Below are positions 2,985 to 16,322 of a stretch of DNA of 16,545 bases, in pieces. Below the pieces are notes generated by a model. The model saw only the letters and a program-made list of their open reading frames with translations. It was not told the DNA's origin and searched no databases. How positions within the stretch are numbered: position 1 is the stretch's first letter; every line of letters begins with the position of its first letter. The DNA lies in NCBI GenBank assembly GCA_046758705.1, contig JBHIAT010000073.1:1-16545 (forward strand). Reading direction: 5' to 3'. A program made the position numbers and the translations under genes. The stretch is from Candidatus Bipolaricaulia bacterium. Lineage in GTDB: Bacteria; Bipolaricaulota; Bipolaricaulia; JBHIAT01.

Positions 2985-5708
2985 TCAACCGCCACGCGCC
3001 AGGATCGTCCGCTTGACCACTTCGACCCCCAGCAATCCGGTCGAGGAGACGGCCAGCACGATGAGCCAATCGTGGAGATTCAGGGGGACAGTACGGAAGG
3101 CAGACTGCAGCGACGGTGTGTAGATCACCAACAACTGCAGCAGGATCGAGGAGAGAACGGCCAGGATCAGGTAGCGATTCTTGAACGGACCGATCTCCAG
3201 GATCGAGTGACGATCCGATCGACAGTTGAACGCGTTGAACATCTCGAACATCACCAGCAAGGTGAATACCATCGTCTGGGCTTTGGTATAGGCGTCCCCA
3301 GTTCCGAGCGTCGGGTTGTACCAATAGAAGATGGGTAGCGTACTGATGGTCATCAGGATCGCCATGGTGATGATGATCGCCTTCACGCCTGGGGTGAAGA
3401 TGCTCGCATGGGAGGAGCGGGGCGCACGCTGCATGATATCAGGATCGGGAGGATCGATCCCGAGCGCGAGCGCGGGGAGGCCGTCGGTCACCAGGTTGAC
3501 CCACAGGATCTGGATCGCAGCCAACGGGAGCGGGAAGCCCAGCAACCCGGCGAACAACATCACCAGGATCTCCCCCACATTGCTGGAGAGCAGATAGGCC
3601 AGATACTTCTTGATATTGTCATAGATCCCCCGCCCTTCTCGAGCTGCCTCCACCAGCGTGGCATAGTTATCATCGGAGAGGACCATGTCAGCGGCCTCCT
3701 GGCTCACCGCGGTCCCGGTGATCCCCATTGCCACCCCGATGTCCGAGCTTTTGAGGGCCGGGGCGTCATTGACCCCATCGCCGGTCATCGCCACCACATG
3801 GTCGTTCGCCTGAAGTGCGTTGACGATCTTCATCTTGTGCTCCGGAGAGACCCGCGTGTAGACCGAGATCTCCTCCACCACCCGCTGGAATGCCTCATCG
3901 CTTATCCGCTCCAGTTCTTCCCCGCTGAGCACCCGGCCGTGATTCAGGATGTCCAGCTCCCGGGCCACCGCCATCGCGGTGAGCCGATGGTCACCCGTGA
4001 TCATCACCGTTTTGATTCCCGCCCTCCGGCACAGCGCCACCGACCGTTTCGCCTCCTGTCGTGGCGGGTCGATCATGCCCATCAGACCGAGGAAGACAAG
4101 ATCCTGCTCCACCGTCTCTTCGGTGAATACCCCCAGGGACGGGGAGAGTTCCCGGTAGGCAAGCCCCAACACCCGAAGCGCCTCTCCGGTCATCCGCTCG
4201 TTGGCCTCCAGGATCGCCTCCCGTTTTGACTTACGGAGTTCGATCGTCTCTCCGTCTGCGGCTCGAAATCGGGAGCACCGTTCCAGAACCATCTCCAGAG
4301 CACCCTTCATATAAGCGAGTTTTCTCCCATCGGGAGCGACATGAACGGTAGACATGCGCTTCCGTTGCGAATCGAACGGGATCTCACCGACACGCAGATA
4401 TTCCGATCGGATCTCCTCCGGGACCAGACCGCCTTTCATCGCCACCACCACCAGCGCCCCTTCGGTCGGATCCCCGATCGATTCCCAGCGACCCTCCTCC
4501 TGTCTCAGCTGTGCGTCATTGCAGAGCAGTGCCACATGGAGCAGGGGGGCGAGTTCCCTCTCACTCACATCCTCGGCGGCGATCTCCCCGTCCGGATCGT
4601 AACCGGTCCCGGTGACTTCGATGTTCCGGCTGCCGACATAGATCCGGCGTACGGTCATCTCCCCTCGGGTCAGGGTGCCCGTCTTGTCCGAGCAGATCAC
4701 CGTTGTGCTGCCCAGCGTCTCGACAGCGGACAGCCGTCGAACGATCGCATTGCGACGGGCCATCCTCTGGACGCCGATGGCCAGGGATCCGGTCACCACG
4801 GCGGGCAATGCCTCCGGGACAGCGGCGACCGCCAAACTCACCCCCCAGATGAACATATCGAACAGCCCCTGGCCCCGGAGGATACCGAGGGCGGACACGG
4901 CGGCGACGACGATCAGGGCGGCGATCCCCAGCCACCGGCCCAACTCCCCCATGCGACGTTCGAGCGGTGTTTTCGGCTCTTCGATCGTCTGGAGCATTCC
5001 GGCAATCTTTCCGAACTCGGTCTCCATCCCCGTTTCCACCACCATCGCCCGGCCCCGACCGTAGGTCACGATCGTGCCGGCGAACACCATGTTCTCTCGC
5101 TCGGCCAGCGGGACAGACGTGGGAAGAACGTCGGGATGCTTGCTAACTGGCGTCGATTCTCCGGTCAGCGGTGCCTCATCGATCTCCAGGTTGAAGGCCT
5201 CGATCAACCGGGCATCGGCGACGACCCGGTCCCCGGTCTCCACGACCAGCAGATCGCCGGGCACAACCTGTGCCGCCGGGATCTCGAGCTCGACCCCGTC
5301 ACGGACGACTCTCGCCGCCGGAGCCGTCATCTGCTTTAACGCCTCGATCGCTCGTTCCGCCCGGTATTCTTGAATAAAGCCGAGAGCCACCGAGGCGATC
5401 ACGATCGCCAGAATGACGCCCGCATCGAGGGCCTCGCCGATCAGAAACGAGACCAGCACGGCAATCAGCAGTAGGATTATCAGGAAGTTTCTGAACTGGC
5501 CCAGAAGCAGTTTGAGGGGGTTGGATCCTGCTTCCCCGCGCAACTCGTTTGGACCGTATTCGTCGAGGCGGCGCGCCGCCTCCTCCGCACTCAACCCTTC
5601 CTCGCCTGAGTTCAGATATTTCAGCAGCTGAGCCACCTCAAGCGCGTACCATATTTCACCTGTGACCATCGGAAATTCTGTGCTGATTTTACCATATCGA
5701 TCGCCCAC
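2985..5708 (-). CDS. Cation-transporting P-type ATPase, Ca2+-type (P2A, PacL/YloB-like)
   Basis: TGES, AVAAVPEALP, phosphorylation site DKTGTLT, KGA, MITGDH, TGDGVND, SSNVGE and QILWVNLVTDGLPALALG. The start may instead be the ATG at 5669. Confidence 0.95.
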   Translation of the reverse strand: MGDRYGKISTEFPMVTGEIWYALEVAQLLKYLNSGEEGLSAEEAARRLDEYGPNELRGEAGSNPLKLLLGQFRNFLIILLLIAVLVSFLIGEALDAGVILAIVIASVALGFIQEYRAERAIEALKQMTAPAARVVRDGVELEIPAAQVVPGDLLVVETGDRVVADARLIEAFNLEIDEAPLTGESTPVSKHPDVLPTSVPLAERENMVFAGTIVTYGRGRAMVVETGMETEFGKIAGMLQTIEEPKTPLERRMGELGRWLGIAALIVVAAVSALGILRGQGLFDMFIWGVSLAVAAVPEALPAVVTGSLAIGVQRMARRNAIVRRLSAVETLGSTTVICSDKTGTLTRGEMTVRRIYVGSRNIEVTGTGYDPDGEIAAEDVSERELAPLLHVALLCNDAQLRQEEGRWESIGDPTEGALVVVAMKGGLVPEEIRSEYLRVGEIPFDSQRKRMSTVHVAPDGRKLAYMKGALEMVLERCSRFRAADGETIELRKSKREAILEANERMTGEALRVLGLAYRELSPSLGVFTEETVEQDLVFLGLMGMIDPPRQEAKRSVALCRRAGIKTVMITGDHRLTAMAVARELDILNHGRVLSGEELERISDEAFQRVVEEISVYTRVSPEHKMKIVNALQANDHVVAMTGDGVNDAPALKSSDIGVAMGITGTAVSQEAADMVLSDDNYATLVEAAREGRGIYDNIKKYLAYLLSSNVGEILVMLFAGLLGFPLPLAAIQILWVNLVTDGLPALALGIDPPDPDIMQRAPRSSHASIFTPGVKAIIITMAILMTISTLPIFYWYNPTLGTGDAYTKAQTMVFTLLVMFEMFNAFNCRSDRHSILEIGPFKNRYLILAVLSSILLQLLVIYTPSLQSAFRTVPLNLHDWLIVLAVSSTGLLGVEVVKRTILARGG

Positions 5709-5759: not shown

Positions 5760-6506
5760 TCACTCCACGTTCCAGAGGGGATTCCGCCCACCGCGTTTGA
5801 TCAAGGGGCGGTGATACTCCATCCCGGTGAACCGCCAGATCGCCTCCCGCCATGAACGGGCCTCCTCTGGGGTCACTTCCTCATCAACGTTATAGGACTG
5901 CTTGCGCTGAAGCTGATACAGCCGTTCTTGGAGCGCTTCCAGTCGGGCGAGGTGATCCTCGATCAGGAAGGCACGCAGCTCGGGCTTCCGGATCTCCTCA
6001 ACAGCCATCTCAACATGGGGGTTGCACAATCCGTCCGAGGCAATGAACTGCTCCCGCCAGCTCTCATCTTCGTCTTCCAGGACGTCGAGTAGGGATAGGA
6101 TTGTGAGACGACCTCCTTGGGTGGATTGGCACAGCATGCATACCTGTGGTCCCGGTGACATCCGGTCTGAGATCGGCCTGCGTACCGATCGACGAACGCC
6201 GGAGAGGATGTCAGCCTGATTCGCCTTATGGAGAAGCTCCACATATCGCTTGACCACCGTCTCGTAGATCCGGGCGACGCCTGCCATGCCGATCAACTCC
6301 CGCTCCTCCACCACCTGGACCATAAGATGGGCATGATATCGACACAGTCCGAGGGCTTCGTCGAAACGGGTCCGAAGCCCGGGATCACCGGTAAACTCAT
6401 ACAGCATCGACCAGATCCAACGCTCCTCATTGAGATGTACCAGACGGCAGATAGAGCATCCCTCAAGTCGAAATGCCCGTTTGAGATCCGATCGGATGAA
6501 GGTCAA
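5760..6506 (-). CDS. DUF6062-family protein (two CxxC...LCxxH putative Zn sites)
   Basis: GCSIC...GLCRYH and CMLC...GLCNPH, with the C-terminal RKQSY...EEARSWREAIWRFTG pattern. TTG start with SD GAGGAGG overlaps the upstream stop (TTGA). Confidence 0.8.
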   Translation of the reverse strand: MTFIRSDLKRAFRLEGCSICRLVHLNEERWIWSMLYEFTGDPGLRTRFDEALGLCRYHAHLMVQVVEERELIGMAGVARIYETVVKRYVELLHKANQADILSGVRRSVRRPISDRMSPGPQVCMLCQSTQGGRLTILSLLDVLEDEDESWREQFIASDGLCNPHVEMAVEEIRKPELRAFLIEDHLARLEALQERLYQLQRKQSYNVDEEVTPEEARSWREAIWRFTGMEYHRPLIKRGGRNPLWNVE

Positions 6507-7462
6507 TGCGGTTCCCCCTCCTCATGAGACCTCAATAGCGGAATGACCGGAATCAGGGTCAGGCGCTCCAACTGAAGCGCCTCCGGCTGCAAAGAAGCGA
6601 TCTCGGTCTCAGGGTCGGAGATAGGAATAGAACCACCTCGTCGAAAACTCGGTCTCATACGAAGGAGGAGCAGACGGACGAAATGACCTGAGGTTCTTGG
6701 AACCCGCTGCAAGGTGGATCGGATCACCCCAGCGTGCCCTGCCAGAAACGCCCGGAGTTGGGGAAGGTTGACAGGAATTCTGACCCGCGGCAGGTCTCGG
6801 AAGAGCTGGAACGTAGCGCCCCAGCCGTCACCTCGGATACGGTCTTCCATGACCGGCAGATCCGTGAGGTGGTAGGTGCCGAAGATGCGCTTACGATCCG
6901 CAGAGGAAGCGTCGACTCGCTCCCCTCCTGACAGCCGCTCCGCAATGGAGGCGAAGCAGTGGTTGAGAAAGACCGGGAAGACCAACGCCACCCGTTTATG
7001 GAGCTCGTAGATGATCTGTCGATCGTCAACCCCGAGAGACGGGACCGTGCGGCGAAGGAGTCCTTCGAACCGGTCTCTCACAATCGATTCGGCAAACCAC
7101 CGGTTGAGATAGTGGGTGTAAGCGATCGGCTCTAAGGCGGCCAGATCGGGGCAGACTAAGAAAGCGAAGAGCGAGGTGCGCAGTTGCTCGGTGAATCCTG
7201 CAGAGGTGCCCGGCAACGGGACTCGGCCGATCGGCACGAACAACTCCCGGTCCTTGCCCTCCCCGATGATGACCGTTACGTTGATCTCCGAGAGCGCTCC
7301 ATAGCGGCTCACAGTCAGGCCGGGGGTCTTGGCAAGGCTCACCCGCGCCAGCTCCGGCAGGGTGTAGGCGCGACGAGCGCACAACCTGAGAATATTCAGG
7401 CGAACCTCGGTTCTGAGCATCCAACGGCGGAACTCCTGTCTTGAGGACTGAAGGATGATCAT
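6503..7462 (-). CDS. Hypothetical protein (~319 aa from ATG 7462; alternative in-frame TTG start at 7561)
   Basis: Long open frame whose stop overlaps the DUF6062 start. The predicted ATG at 7630 lies inside the fluoride aptamer, so it is unlikely to be the real start. No family recognised. Confidence 0.6.
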   Translation of the reverse strand: MIILQSSRQEFRRWMLRTEVRLNILRLCARRAYTLPELARVSLAKTPGLTVSRYGALSEINVTVIIGEGKDRELFVPIGRVPLPGTSAGFTEQLRTSLFAFLVCPDLAALEPIAYTHYLNRWFAESIVRDRFEGLLRRTVPSLGVDDRQIIYELHKRVALVFPVFLNHCFASIAERLSGGERVDASSADRKRIFGTYHLTDLPVMEDRIRGDGWGATFQLFRDLPRVRIPVNLPQLRAFLAGHAGVIRSTLQRVPRTSGHFVRLLLLRMRPSFRRGGSIPISDPETEIASLQPEALQLERLTLIPVIPLLRSHEEGEPH

Positions 7463-7492
7463 TCGATCCCGATCCTTTGGATCCGACCGCGG

Positions 7493-7561
7493 ATCGGAGA
7501 TCCTGTGGCGAAGAGCGGTGCCAACGACACCCCTGATTCCAACGATGAGCCGCTTGAGCAA
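7493..7561 (-). pseudogene. Possible relic of the crcB/Fluc fluoride channel N-terminus, in frame with the downstream hypothetical ORF
   Basis: SD GAGGTG, 6 nt, then TTG giving MLKRLIVGIRGVVGTALRHRISD. This resembles the Fluc TM1 motif (LLVGxGGxxGAxLRYxxS) and lies directly after a fluoride riboswitch. Confidence 0.45.
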
Positions 7562-7589
7562 CAGAGCCACCTCTTTATCGAGAGGGTAG

Positions 7590-7635
7590 GTAGGAGTCAT
7601 CAGCCTAGGGGCGGTTAGGGCGAACTCCATCGCCC
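7590..7635 (-). ncRNA. Fluoride riboswitch (crcB RNA motif)
   Basis: Minus strand GGGCGAUGGAGUUCGCCCUAACCGCCCCUAGGCUGAUGACUCCUAC. P1 GGGCGA/UCGCCC, pseudoknot GGAGU/ACUCC, P2 GCC-CCUA-GGC, and conserved GAUG, AACCGC, GAUGAC..CUAC. Confidence 0.93.
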
Positions 7636-7646
7636 GAAGCTATTTC

Positions 7647-10698: not shown

Positions 10699-11346
10699 TC
10701 AGCGAACATCCACAATCTGGATGTCGGCTGCTTTCAGTTCCCAGATGATCTCCTCCGTGTTCCCCTGCGCTACCATCCGGATCACGACCTCGCGTCGGTT
10801 CGGCGGGCCCGGATGGAGATGAGAGGAGGCCAGGCTCAGGATGTTCACATGGTGATCTCTGATCGGTTCCAACACTTGAACCAGAGCCCCCGGCTCATCC
10901 TTCAGTTCAATCGTCAGCCGGGTCCCACCCTCCTCGAACCCCATCACCTCGATCAGCACGACAAAGATGTCGGACTCGGTGATGATTCCCACCAACCCTT
11001 CCTGGCCACCGACGACCGGCAGGCCGCCGACCTTGTGCCTGCGCATCTTCACCGCCGCCTCCTCGATGGTATCCTGGGGCCTGACGGTGACCACCTCCCG
11101 ACTCATCACCTCCTCCACCGTCGTCTTGGCCAGCAGGTAGTTCAACTCCCAGATGCTCAGGCTGGTCGCATCCGAAGGGCCTGCCTCCTGAATATCCCCC
11201 TGGGTTACGATCCCCACCAGTTTCTCACCCTTCATCACCGGCAGCCGGCGGATGTTGTGTTGTCTCATGGTCTCACGAGCGTCCATGATCGGCGCCTCCG
11301 GCGACACGGTGACCACATCGCGGGTCATCCACATTTCGATGAACAT
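10699..11346 (-). CDS. CBS-pair + ACT domain protein (AcuB-like), copy 2
   Basis: Same architecture as 1153-1800 (about 60% identity by manual alignment). SD AGGAGG. Confidence 0.9.
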   Translation of the reverse strand: MFIEMWMTRDVVTVSPEAPIMDARETMRQHNIRRLPVMKGEKLVGIVTQGDIQEAGPSDATSLSIWELNYLLAKTTVEEVMSREVVTVRPQDTIEEAAVKMRRHKVGGLPVVGGQEGLVGIITESDIFVVLIEVMGFEEGGTRLTIELKDEPGALVQVLEPIRDHHVNILSLASSHLHPGPPNRREVVIRMVAQGNTEEIIWELKAADIQIVDVR

Positions 11347-13641: not shown

Positions 13642-14100
13642 TCATCCCGTCACTTCGACGATATTTTGGGGAGTTCCATTGAGGAACGCTTCGATGTTGG
13701 CAACCGTCGTCTCTAAGATTCGCTCCACCGCCTCCCGGCTGAGCAGTTGCTTCTCCTCCTTAATCAACGCCTCTTCCTCCAGCACATCCAAGCCGGCCCC
13801 CCCAACGATCCCCCGGTCGAGTCCCCAGACGAGCGCGAACGTGCGTTCATAGGCCTTGTGCACCTTGCGGGACAGTGACAGAATCAGGGCGAACGTGTGC
13901 TCAGCCACCGTGTTGTCGCCGTAATACGGGACGTTGGTGACGACCACGCCGCGCTCCCGGCAGGCGTCGAGATCGATGTGATCGTAGCCGGTCGACCGTG
14001 TTGCCACCAGCTGAACGTCGGGCAAGGCGTTGAGCGTATCAACGGTGATCTCGGAGTAGATGAACGGGGAGAGGACGGTGATCCCTTGGGCGAACACCAT
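13642..14100 (-). pseudogene. Internally deleted D-2-hydroxyacid (D-lactate-type) dehydrogenase remnant
   Basis: Retains ATRSTGYDHID, NVPYYGDNTVAEHTFALIL, GAGLDVLEEE and the C-terminal helix. Lacks the N-terminus, the GxGxIG NAD motif, NTARG and the catalytic TPH. Confidence 0.85.
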
Positions 14101-14215
14101 ACCGGGGCCGCCGCCAACATAGGCGGGCCCGAGCTCGATCAAAATCGAGACGTAACTCTATTTAGCACAACTGCTATCACGAAGTCAAACGCCCTTCGAT
14201 TCCAGTCCACTGTGA

Positions 14216-14244
14216 TTGATTCGGAGTTTCCCTGGGATTATAAT
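14216..14244 (+). promoter_or_regulatory. sigma70 promoter for the DUF4342 gene (and possibly the omegaRNA by read-through)
   Basis: TTGATT-17 nt-TATAAT, followed by a G-rich SD before ATG 14268. Confidence 0.75.
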
Positions 14245-14267: not shown

Positions 14268-14537
14268 ATGGCAGAAAAGAAAACCACGGTGGAAGTGGAG
14301 GACGTCGAGGGCAGTAAACTCATCGACAGGGTCGGTGAACTCCTTCACGAAGCTCGGGTACGCCGGATCAGTATCAAGAACAAGGAGGGCAGGACCCTGT
14401 TGGACATTCCCCTTTGGGGAGGAGCTGTGGCGGCGGTGATAGCCCCGATTATGGCAGCTGTAGGGGCGGCTGCAGCTCTGTTAGTAGGGGGCCAGATTGA
14501 AGTCGAAAGAGAGGAAGAGGAAGAAGGAGAAGAGTAA
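14268..14537 (+). CDS. DUF4342 domain protein
   Basis: LIDRVGELLHEARVRRISIK...LLDIPL..GAVAAVIAP.MAAVGAAAALL...IEVER matches the family pattern. Promoter and SD present. Confidence 0.85.
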   Translation: MAEKKTTVEVEDVEGSKLIDRVGELLHEARVRRISIKNKEGRTLLDIPLWGGAVAAVIAPIMAAVGAAAALLVGGQIEVEREEEEEGEE

Positions 14538-14543
14538 GATTGT

Positions 14544-14812
14544 GTCAATGACCCGCCCCTCAAGGAGGCGGGCTTGCCATGGCGATAGCAACGTAAGCAT
14601 TGACTAGGAGGAGTTTGCCATCCTAATGCAAAGCCAATGGCAAACTAAACGCATTGCAGGCTACAAGGACGGCGGAGTGCACGACCTGGCTCCGCCCGCT
14701 CCGGCAGAATCGCTTAATGCCACGTCTGTCCATCACAACCGTCAACACCGCCGACAGACTAAGCCTGCTTTGCCCCTCGAAGGTCACTCAACAGGTCCAC
14801 GGGAGCCTGGCC
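14544..14812 (+). ncRNA. omegaRNA (HEARO-like) scaffold for IsrB
   Basis: Stems GTCAATG/CATTGAC (14544-50/14598-604), AGTTTGCCAT/ATGGCAAACT (14612-21/14637-46), GGCGGAG/CTCCGCC (14671-77/14690-96) and GTCTGTC/GACAGAC (14724-30/14753-59). Possible pseudoknots GACCT/AGGTC and GAGG/CCTC. The 3' end is approximate. Confidence 0.8.
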
Positions 14813-14814
14813 GT

Positions 14815-15873
14815 ATACCGGCACTCATTCCCGTGCTCCACCAGGATGGTACCCCGCTTACGCCTTGTAAGCCAGCCAAAGCCCGCAAGTTGCTCCGGGG
14901 CGGTGTGGCAGAAAAGCACTGGAACAAGCTCGGTCATTTCTACATTCAGATGCGGGTCGAGACGGGCAAAGAGACACCGGAGATGTGGTTGGCGGACGAC
15001 CCCGGTTCGCAGTTTGACGGGATCGCGGTCGCTTCTCATCAGCGGGTTCAAACGACCGCTATGCTGGAATTGCCCACCGGGATCGCCAAGAAGATGACCA
15101 ACCGGAGACAACTCAGACGGGCCCGGCGGTATCGCAAATGTCGCAGGCGACCGAAGCGATTTGACAATCGCCACCGACCGGAGGGTTGGACAGCTCCCTC
15201 GCAGAAAGCCAAAGTGGACTTCCGGCTGAAGGTGATCGGTGAGCTCTATAAGCTCTATCCGATTGCTGGTGCTGTGGTCGAGGATGTGCGATTTAACCAC
15301 TATCGCAACCGTTGGGGCAAGCACTTCTCCACGGTCGAGATCGGGAAAGCTTACTTCTATGCCGAGCTAAAGAAGCTCGGTCAGCTGAAGCTATACGCTG
15401 GCTGGGAGACGCAGGAAGAACGCGAGAGGCAGGGCTTGAAGAAAAGCAAGTCCAAGCGTAAGAGGACACCGGAGAGCCATGTGGTGGATGCGGTAGCGAT
15501 GTTGTCTCGATGGCTGGGGACAGCTGACCTGCGCGTGCCCCAGTTCTGGGTGTTCAAGCGACCGAATGTGCGCAGGCGCAGCCTCCACCTTCAGAACCCG
15601 GCCAAGGGAGGGGTGCGACGGGGGCATGGAGGGACAGCTGCGTTAGGCATCGCCAAGCACACGGTTTGTCTTTGGAAAGGGCAGCTGTATCGAACCGGGG
15701 GGTCAACGGGAGGCCGGCTGAGTTTGCACGATATGACACTGGAGGCGAAGCGGGTGGTGCGGCACGCCAAAGTGGAGGAGTTGACATTGTTGTTCAAGCA
15801 ATCGATATTGGGAATGGAGGTGAAATACAAGCCTGACGGCTTGCAGCCAATTCCCCCTTCTCCGTCCCCCTGA
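14815..15873 (+). CDS. isrB: IsrB RNA-guided nickase (RRXRR/PLMP + split RuvC, no HNH)
   Basis: PLMP domain (IPVLHQDGTPLTPCKPAKARKLL), RuvC-I DDPG, Arg-rich bridge helix RRQLRRARRYRK..R..RFDNR, RuvC-II VVEDV and RuvC-III SHVVDA, with no HNH insert; about 350 aa. The start codon is uncertain (ATA 14815, GTG 14833, or ATG 14626 inside the omegaRNA). Confidence 0.88.
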   Translation: MPALIPVLHQDGTPLTPCKPAKARKLLRGGVAEKHWNKLGHFYIQMRVETGKETPEMWLADDPGSQFDGIAVASHQRVQTTAMLELPTGIAKKMTNRRQLRRARRYRKCRRRPKRFDNRHRPEGWTAPSQKAKVDFRLKVIGELYKLYPIAGAVVEDVRFNHYRNRWGKHFSTVEIGKAYFYAELKKLGQLKLYAGWETQEERERQGLKKSKSKRKRTPESHVVDAVAMLSRWLGTADLRVPQFWVFKRPNVRRRSLHLQNPAKGGVRRGHGGTAALGIAKHTVCLWKGQLYRTGGSTGGRLSLHDMTLEAKRVVRHAKVEELTLLFKQSILGMEVKYKPDGLQPIPPSPSP

Positions 15874-15914
15874 AGGAGGACGGTCCCCTTGGCTGAATTC
15901 TATGGTCCGGCATG

Positions 15915-16322
15915 CTACGCCATCACGTTCGTGATCAGCCGTTGGACATCCTCTAACGTGGCCATCGCCCCGCTCTCCTTCGACTCCATAATGACGAGAG
16001 AGATCAGTTGGGCCTTGCCATCGGTCGCCTCCCGGATCGGATCGTAGAGATCCCGGAGGAAGTGTTGTGCCAAGTTTTCCGGAGTCGGGTTGTAACCGCA
16101 CCAATCGTTCAGGTATTGTCCTTCAGGAAGATAGTCGTTGAGGATTTGCTTGATCCGATCGGTGTCAACCAGGAGGCCAGGGATCTGCTCGTTCCCTTCC
16201 AGGTTCCCCTGTATCTGCAGTCGAATCTCCCAGGTATGATCGTGCGGATCAGAGAAGGAAGTCACTGGATGACCTTCGACCGCATGTGAAGCATCGAACC
16301 GATGGATCACCCACACGAACAT
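15915..16322 (-). CDS. QueD/6-pyruvoyl-tetrahydropterin synthase family protein (T-fold), atypical active site
   Basis: FDASH, HxH (HDH), G.LVD, LND, NPTPENLA and a terminal ES strand. SD GGAGGT. Lacks the CxxxHGH cysteine. Confidence 0.8.
   Translation of the reverse strand: MFVWVIHRFDASHAVEGHPVTSFSDPHDHTWEIRLQIQGNLEGNEQIPGLLVDTDRIKQILNDYLPEGQYLNDWCGYNPTPENLAQHFLRDLYDPIREATDGKAQLISLVIMESKESGAMATLEDVQRLITNVMA

Follow-up and report, generated by a model that had tools for sequence, protein, structure and literature searches.

A probable IsrB-type OMEGA element, structurally intact and with an unusual reading-frame start, in a Candidatus Bipolaricaulia contig

The Cas9 lineage includes IsrB, its smallest member, which serves as a programmable nickase. 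IscB carries an HNH domain and cleaves both DNA strands; an HNH domain is missing from the protein described here. The closest described IsrB system is that of Desulfovirgula thermocuniculi, DtIsrB with its omegaRNA (PDB 8DMB; Hirano et al. 2022, PMC9581776). The present analysis concerns a 16,545-nt stretch of Candidatus Bipolaricaulia bacterium DNA (assembly GCA_046758705.1, contig JBHIAT010000073.1; hereafter, the window). Between a DUF4342 gene and a PTPS/QueD-like gene, the 1349 bp at 14544-15892 (+) were found to hold an omegaRNA scaffold of ~280 nt (14544-14823), a gene for an HNH-less IsrB, and a hairpin at the far end (15862-15883). We read this segment, with a probability of about 0.85, as a structurally intact, non-autonomous insertion of the IS200/IS605 superfamily (ISC1-type) that codes for an OMEGA nickase system. 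Biologically it is unremarkable, a further non-autonomous OMEGA element at an intergenic site and another example of a well-described kind; the start of its reading frame is the unusual part.

The longest isrB frame runs from 14626 to 15873 (+), 415 codons that begin at its only ATG and that are uninterrupted, as an earlier, sequence-only reading of this DNA had claimed. The conserved core, with the PLMP domain, the split RuvC, the bridge helix and the putative domain that interacts with the target-adjacent motif (TAM), occupies 14827-15873 (+). The same reading had called the protein an HNH-less IsrB and had proposed profile searches as a check, and their outcome supports that identity. RRXRR (PF14239) was the sole Pfam family found (E 7.8e-44; residues 68-224, profile positions 1-157), with no HNH family in Pfam at E values up to 1. 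The NCBIfam equivalog model for IscB (guided_IscB) gave 134.6 bits (E 4e-39), below its cut-off of 175. The best sequence match among solved structures was DtIsrB (8DMB, E 4.3e-78, query residues 67-342), IscB chains reaching only E 1e-12 or weaker. When compared with DtIsrB as translated from its genomic locus (L028), the protein showed 52% identity over 276 residues, with a single gap of one residue. The aligned stretch spans RuvC-I, the bridge helix, RuvC-II, the short linker that replaces HNH, and RuvC-III; since one residue is the only gap to DtIsrB between RuvC-II and RuvC-III, there is no room for an HNH insertion.

An AlphaFold2 model, built from a 29-sequence alignment, was confident over the core (195 residues with a predicted local distance difference test score, pLDDT, of at least 90) and fell below a pLDDT of 50 for residues 1-61 and 405-415. 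Its top Foldseek match in the Protein Data Bank was 8dmb_P (E 1.8e-34, target-normalised TM 0.80, 44% identity, 344 columns covered), and the next-best matches were IscB structures, at 17-21% identity. The second place of these structures and the E value of the NCBIfam IscB model are what might suggest an IscB or an early Cas9, that is, a double-strand nuclease and not a nickase. The sub-cut-off score, the lack of any HNH family, a spacing from RuvC-II to RuvC-III equal to that of DtIsrB, and the higher structural identity to IsrB all speak against such an enzyme, which we regard as extremely improbable. The hallmarks of Cas9 and type II systems (CRISPR array, REC lobe, HNH) were likewise missing: a Cas9d model matched at E 0.03 only, and the protein has at most 415 residues. 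The window contained no CRISPR-type array, Tandem Repeats Finder giving one 18-nt repeat of two copies (3346-3381).

The residues D125 of RuvC-I (within ADDPG), E219 of RuvC-II, and H285 and D288 of RuvC-III, which we take to be the catalytic ones, as in RuvC and Cas9 generally, were invariant in 43 of 43 sequences of a MAFFT alignment made up of the complete relatives from genome loci, DtIsrB included. They were also invariant in a protein alignment referred to as A1. The RuvC D/E/H-D set noted earlier from the sequence is thus present. The PLMP domain aligned to DtIsrB residues 8-59 and was modelled as strands plus a helix at residues 68-109 (pLDDT 80-96); its motif reads PLTP (residues 77-80 in the 415-residue numbering). 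The sequence-only reading had pointed to PLTP and ADDPG as divergent motifs. Both do occur, but neither is special: PLT was also found in other loci, and within DPG it is the catalytic Asp that does not vary. An Arg-rich segment, RRQLRRARRYRKCRRRPKRFDNR, aligned with the bridge-helix region of DtIsrB and was predicted to be helical at 153-168.

The closest protein in a large protein collection was P0001, 94% identical and named in its source as coming from a Candidatus Bipolaricaulia metagenome-assembled genome (MAG); the five nearest proteins (P0001-P0005) were 71-94% identical. A profile scan of genome contigs yielded 29 pattern matches, none of them confirmed, with a single protein as the query, and 61 loci with alignment A1 as the query.

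Upstream of the isrB core, the Rfam HEARO model (RF02033), run in E-value mode, matched 14544-14792 (+) over its full length (1-211) with 58.9 bits (E 7e-11). The single-sequence fold of 14544-14823 (+) had an energy of -107 kcal/mol (z -3.69, with none of 200 shuffles as good) and contained the same nested helices as a structure written by hand. In the latter, all 85 base pairs are standard in the window, so that the multi-stem omegaRNA with intact main helices announced by the sequence-only reading was borne out. Its helices and stem-loops (SL), all on the + strand, were assigned by position and named after those given for DtIsrB in part of PMC9581776. They are S1 (14544-14550/14598-14604), SL1 (14552-14572), SL2 (14574-14591), the long-range helix S2 (14608-14611/14775-14778), SL3 (14612-14646), S3 (14651-14661/14763-14773), SL4 (14667-14702), SL5 (14703-14721), SL6 (14724-14759), SL7 (14792-14809) and SL8 (14810-14822). 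Two pseudoknots complete the structure, an adaptor (14581-14586/14709-14714) and a nexus (14683-14687/14781-14785).

Covariation was analysed on an alignment (A2) of 50 loci and 577 columns, which covers 319 nt and ends 8 nt inside the conserved core. RNAalifold predicted 29 pairs on A2, 28 of them with compensatory changes. Under the 85-pair structure, 77.0% of the cells were paired. The corresponding value was 60.4% in shuffles, none of 500 of which reached the observed level, and 35-47% with the partners slid by 1-3 columns; the latter control somewhat favours the structure, as it was derived from one member of A2. Changes on both sides were seen in 72 of the 85 pairs, including seven of the eight pairs of SL1. 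The adaptor pseudoknot was paired in 80% and the nexus in 75% across the 50 loci, with two-sided changes in four of six and four of five pairs, respectively. The weakest helices were S2 (46% paired), SL3 (39%) and the inner part of SL7 (41%), whose columns are poorly aligned and variable in length. These data support the upstream RNA, both pseudoknots included, as an omegaRNA of IsrB type, a class whose members measure ~300 nt and lie directly upstream of their gene.

The limits of the element were placed by comparing the ends of family members. All aligned loci open their conserved block with GTCA[AG], and the window reads GTCAAT at 14544. In 11 comparisons of related copies, most of them from the same genome, homology began at this motif, apart from one to nine upstream bases matching by chance in some pairs. 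Homology stopped directly after NTGA(A) in ten of the 11; the exception was the pair L001/L002, whose 3' parts differ. The far end of the window's element reads GGACGGTCCCCTTGG followed by CTGAA (15893-15897), and in the DtIsrB locus the far end is GGAATCCTGCGCCGGAAGATC, with TTGA after it. For transposons of this family, the target motif belongs to the target site. From the family comparison of ends, the element end was put at 15892, and the CTGA at 15893-15896 (+), an NTGA-type motif that abuts the far end, was taken to lie outside the element. The limits proposed earlier, 14544 and 15901, were therefore exact on the left and ~9 nt too far on the right. TTGA, or NTGA, is the experimentally determined TAM of DtIsrB, according to part of PMC9581776. 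The same source gives the 20-nt guide length adopted here, with which the probable guide source is AAGGAGAAGAGTAAGATTGT (14524-14543, +), directly 5' of the scaffold and overlapping the DUF4342 stop codon. In the transposase-based naming of Meers et al., as set out in part of their report (bioRxiv 10.1101/2023.03.14.532601), the left end is the one that adjoins the motif and the right end the one next to the guide, so that the omegaRNA side here would be the 'right end'.

The claim that related hairpins stand at both ends also held. The omegaRNA-side subterminal hairpin (14552-14572; CCCGCCCC/UCAA/GG-A-GGCGGG), which is the same sequence as SL1, had a DNA fold of -8.1 kcal/mol on the + strand and -9.6 kcal/mol on the - strand. 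The far-end hairpin (15862-15883; CCGTCCCC/CTGAA/GG-A-GGACGG, loop at 15870-15874) is enclosed by an outer stem (15846-15850/15889-15893). Both hairpins are alike in stem and loop, and each folds as DNA on either strand. The far-end layout, ATTCC, hairpin, CCTTG and then NTGA, recurs in relatives. Related imperfect subterminal hairpins and a short motif abutting one end, the features of IS200/IS605-type ends, were thus found together. As the sequence-only reading had noticed, the isrB stop codon (TGA, 15871-15873) sits at the tip of the far-end hairpin, in its 5-nt loop CTGAA; the same holds for L028.

Both ends of the isrB frame overlap cis-acting end structures. The last ~10 IsrB residues (PIPPSPSP) are encoded by the far-end hairpin region (15846-15873) and were unstructured in the model. 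In many relatives (L003, L004, L006, L012, L018, L046, L011, L009 and L014) the target motif itself supplies the TGA that stops isrB; as this motif lies outside the transposon, their frame is closed by the insertion site.

The C-terminal TAM-interacting domain was not aligned to DtIsrB by BLASTP, so the assignment of its residues comes from the multiple alignment. There, R376 aligned with DtIsrB R323, which like Q326 is a TAM-reading residue, in a column with Arg in 40 of 43 sequences. R379 (codon 15760-15762) aligned with DtIsrB Q326, in a column holding Gln in 28, Lys in five and Arg in three of the 43. As described in part of PMC9581776, Q326 of DtIsrB reads the fourth TAM base, and a Q326R mutant cut targets with TTGA, ATGA, TTGG and ATGG. 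R379 would thus be the same change that relaxed the specificity of DtIsrB when engineered. The predicted TAM of the window's IsrB would be NTGR rather than a strict NTGA, with which the CTGA found at the site is compatible.

Several points weigh against the reading of this locus as an intact, mobile OMEGA element. The HEARO score lies under the gathering score of 83 bits and is unlisted in a default scan, in which a fluoride riboswitch was the only Rfam match in the window; the covariance-model check proposed by the sequence-only reading thus returned a match, though one below threshold. The Arg at the position of DtIsrB Q326 means that the TAM preference may differ from the CTGA present at the site. 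No transposase family was matched by any of the 16 other open reading frames (ORFs) scanned in the 16.5-kb window, which leaves it without tnpA, and no second copy of the element that could act as a homing template was found in the window. Finally, no ATG, GTG or TTG with a Shine-Dalgarno sequence at the usual place precedes the PLMP domain in the window, and the sole ATG (14626) falls inside the omegaRNA. If neither this ATG nor a weak codon works, the copy makes no protein.

As to the first of these points, HEARO matched five of seven related loci tested, all with fewer than 83 bits. The experimentally validated omegaRNA of DtIsrB scored 56.2 bits, so that a sub-threshold score is normal for IsrB-type RNAs, which the HEARO model under-covers. 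The missing transposase agrees with a non-autonomous element: there is space for isrB alone, and the Y1 (HUH) transposase TnpA of autonomous IS200/IS605 elements is absent. Together with the single copy in the window and a GC content (58.5%) equal to that of the host flanks, the lack of a nearby transposase could also be expected of a gene that the host has domesticated as an RNA-guided regulator or repair factor and that is no longer transposon-like. However, the hairpins at both ends, the precise GTCAA start and the NTGA next to the element, which matter only for transposition or homing, are all kept, and the guide is nothing but the adjoining flank, as it is in mobile copies. A nearby tnpA is in any case lacking for most iscB and isrB genes, as stated in part of bioRxiv 10.1101/2023.03.14.532601. 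Domestication is thus very unlikely.

The start of isrB needs closer consideration. Translation must begin either at ATG 14626 or at one of the weak codons ATA 14815, ATT 14827 and GTG 14833. The protein would have 415 residues in the former case and 346-352 in the latter, the norm for IsrB being ~350. The ATG sits in the loop of SL3, 14 nt past the GGAGG that forms the 5' strand of S2, and residues 1-61 are encoded by the scaffold. ATA 14815 was considered as a conserved start and rejected: it aligns with the ATG of DPANN-type loci and with an ATA in L004, L022 and L039, but the same position is TTA in L003 and falls in the loop of SL8, a conserved hairpin.

This arrangement is shared by relatives. 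Among 53 entries (52 loci plus the window), 38 had an in-frame ATG that precedes the conserved strand by at most 25 codons and is not separated from it by a stop codon. The other 15 comprised five with GTG or TTG at the homologous start position, one cut by a contig end, and nine with no proximal start (the window, L003, L004, L006, L007, L009, L012, L022 and L053). In all nine, 56-78 open codons lead back to an ATG within the omegaRNA; of the 38 entries with a proximal ATG, 14 had frames open for at least 50 codons. The nine entries fall into about four lineages and are thus not independent. Six of them (the window, L006, L007, L009, L012 and L053) carry AUGCARA in the SL3 loop, ~11-18 nt past the 5' strand of S2 (GGAGG or GAGGG), while in L003, L004 and L022 the upstream ATG is in SL2 instead. 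A Met near the PLMP strand was also missing in all 16 long-form relatives of alignment A1. Given this clade-wide pattern, the upstream ATG may be at least as likely a start as a weak proximal codon.

Substitutions between related loci were spread evenly over the three codon positions of the N-terminal extension (17/11/15 and 8/10/5, others being alike), as against 24/27/98 and similar values in the cores. In P0003 and P0007, part of the same RNA stretch is read in another frame. These results, and the lack of structure in the AlphaFold2 model, rule out the extension as a protein-constrained segment. It appears to evolve like RNA and not like protein, and the apparent conservation of its amino acids (GYKDGG..EPLNAT) is a by-product of RNA conservation.

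A tentative reading, which we consider possible though not probable, is that this element and a sizeable clade of bacterial and archaeal IsrB genes gave up the canonical start that follows SL7 and SL8 and begin translation at an AUG within the omegaRNA scaffold. About 200 nt would then be both scaffold and coding sequence, and the leader that they encode would be disordered, with no selection on its amino-acid sequence as such. Once folded, or once bound by IsrB, the RNA would keep both its ribosome-binding site and its start codon hidden; a transcript would serve either as message or as guide, and IsrB would switch off its own production. If true, this would be a compact case of one sequence acting as structured RNA and as coding sequence, with built-in autoregulation. 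A limited literature search, which included parts of PMC9755519 and PMC13565253, found no description of an N-terminal extension of IsrB or of a start inside an omegaRNA.

The same observations could be explained by a preserved but silent relic, in which the isrB start has been lost and no IsrB is made; at most the omegaRNA would be expressed, and could serve an IsrB encoded elsewhere. A canonical proximal start is indeed missing, and at the position of the relatives' ATG one finds ATA or the loop of SL8. L039 has ATA exactly at the ATG position of its nearest relatives, and part of PMC9581776 mentions, for IscB, omegaRNAs that stand alone and act in trans. Against this, the 348 core codons are open and all catalytic residues are kept, and the start-less architecture with an upstream ATG is found in eight other loci of several lineages, besides the 16 long-form proteins of A1. 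Five of those eight loci could be compared as related pairs, and their cores show a strong excess of third-position changes, that is, purifying selection; P0001, at 94% identity, keeps the same long frame. A silent relic is accordingly unlikely. The reading of a potentially active element is compatible with every feature checked and is qualified by the missing canonical start. The recent origin that the sequence-only reading had also proposed found no support, as the GC content matches that of the flanks and a second copy is absent from the window.

How such an element might work can be sketched after its relatives, following parts of PMC9581776 and bioRxiv 10.1101/2023.03.14.532601, from which expression, ribonucleoprotein formation, nicking and homing are all carried over. 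The basis found in the sequence is the intact protein, the RNA, both end hairpins, the position of the guide and the adjacent motif. A transcript entering from the left, probably by read-through from the DUF4342 gene, would yield the omegaRNA, the 20 nt at its 5' end copying the flank at 14524-14543. The ~280-nt scaffold would fold into the IsrB-type multi-helix body with its two pseudoknots and would be bound by IsrB. A TnpA acting in trans would excise the element, and the rejoined empty site would consist of the guide match followed by CTGA. The ribonucleoprotein would recognise this site through the NTGA-type motif and its single RuvC site would nick the non-target strand, after which repair from a sister copy would restore the element. 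To our knowledge, the systems in which restorative homing has been demonstrated include TnpB and IscB but not IsrB.

The surroundings of the element agree with this transcription route. The DUF4342 gene (14268-14537, +; stop codon at 14535-14537) is co-oriented with the element, which starts 6 nt past its stop. The PTPS/QueD-like gene (15915-16322, -) is convergent, the element ending 22 nt before its stop. A promoter-like site was found upstream of the DUF4342 gene, at 14216-14244, and no terminator-like site was found between it and the element, which makes read-through transcription of the omegaRNA plausible. An orientation bias is reported for IscB elements in part of bioRxiv 10.1101/2023.03.14.532601, and the arrangement in the window agrees with it.

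Other features of the window were recorded in passing. The fluoride riboswitch is at 7584-7643 (-; 61.7 bits, E 2.7e-15). It is directly followed by an ORF of 375 codons (6503-7630, -) that matched no Pfam or NCBIfam family and that is possibly an unnamed fluoride-response gene; a DUF6062 gene (5760-6506) and a P-type cation ATPase gene (2985-5708) come after it. About 400 nt upstream of the IsrB element, a D-2-hydroxyacid dehydrogenase frame of 166 residues (13642-14142, -) contains only parts of the catalytic domain (Pfam 2-Hacid_dh; about positions 59-124 of 320 of the NCBIfam model), without the NAD-binding domain, and is likely a gene remnant. Two paralogous CBS-CBS-ACT genes encode 215 residues each (1153-1800, -, and 10699-11346, -); 300-nt stretches of the two (1226-1525 and 10772-11071) are 69% identical, and one of the genes adjoins a universal stress protein gene and trkH/trkA.

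When the element is set beside known systems, the Rfam HEARO model shares with the window's RNA S1, SL1, SL2, the long-range helix and the inner helices, and lacks its 50-nt insertion (the SL5/SL6 region) and its longer 3' part (SL7/SL8). IscB (OgeuIscB, 7XHT/7UTN; GstIscB of ISGst5) shares the PLMP domain, RuvC, the bridge helix, a 5' omegaRNA of the HEARO family and the IS200/IS605 context. Its motif, TTCAT, given in part of bioRxiv 10.1101/2023.03.14.532601 as lying 5' of the transposase-defined left end, corresponds to ATGAA in gene orientation, compared with CTGAA here. The long-form isrB genes of Bathyarchaeota, Methanoperedens and other MAGs (eight loci), together with P0001, resemble the window in a frame that is open through the omegaRNA; the long-form loci have only 45-55% protein identity to it.

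DtIsrB has the same domain order as the window protein, with PLMP, the split RuvC holding the Arg-rich bridge helix, the short linker in place of HNH, and then the putative TAM-interacting domain; the 52% identity between them covers residues 5-279 of the 352-residue reading of the latter. Their omegaRNAs have the same set of helices and both pseudoknots, their HEARO scores lie within 3 bits of each other, and the DtIsrB scaffold measures 262 nt, according to part of PMC9581776, as against ~280 nt in the window. The two systems differ in that DtIsrB has AAGGAGG in SL7, followed by SL8 and then the ATG, whereas the ATG of the window is in the SL3 loop; further, the TAM-interacting domains have diverged too far for BLASTP, and it is an Arg of the window protein that aligns with DtIsrB Q326. 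As an intact natural protein-omegaRNA pair with defined ends and motif, the element is a candidate tool and adds a data point on TAM diversity. With DtIsrB it also shares the stop codon in the loop of the far-end hairpin and the NTGA motif just past the end.

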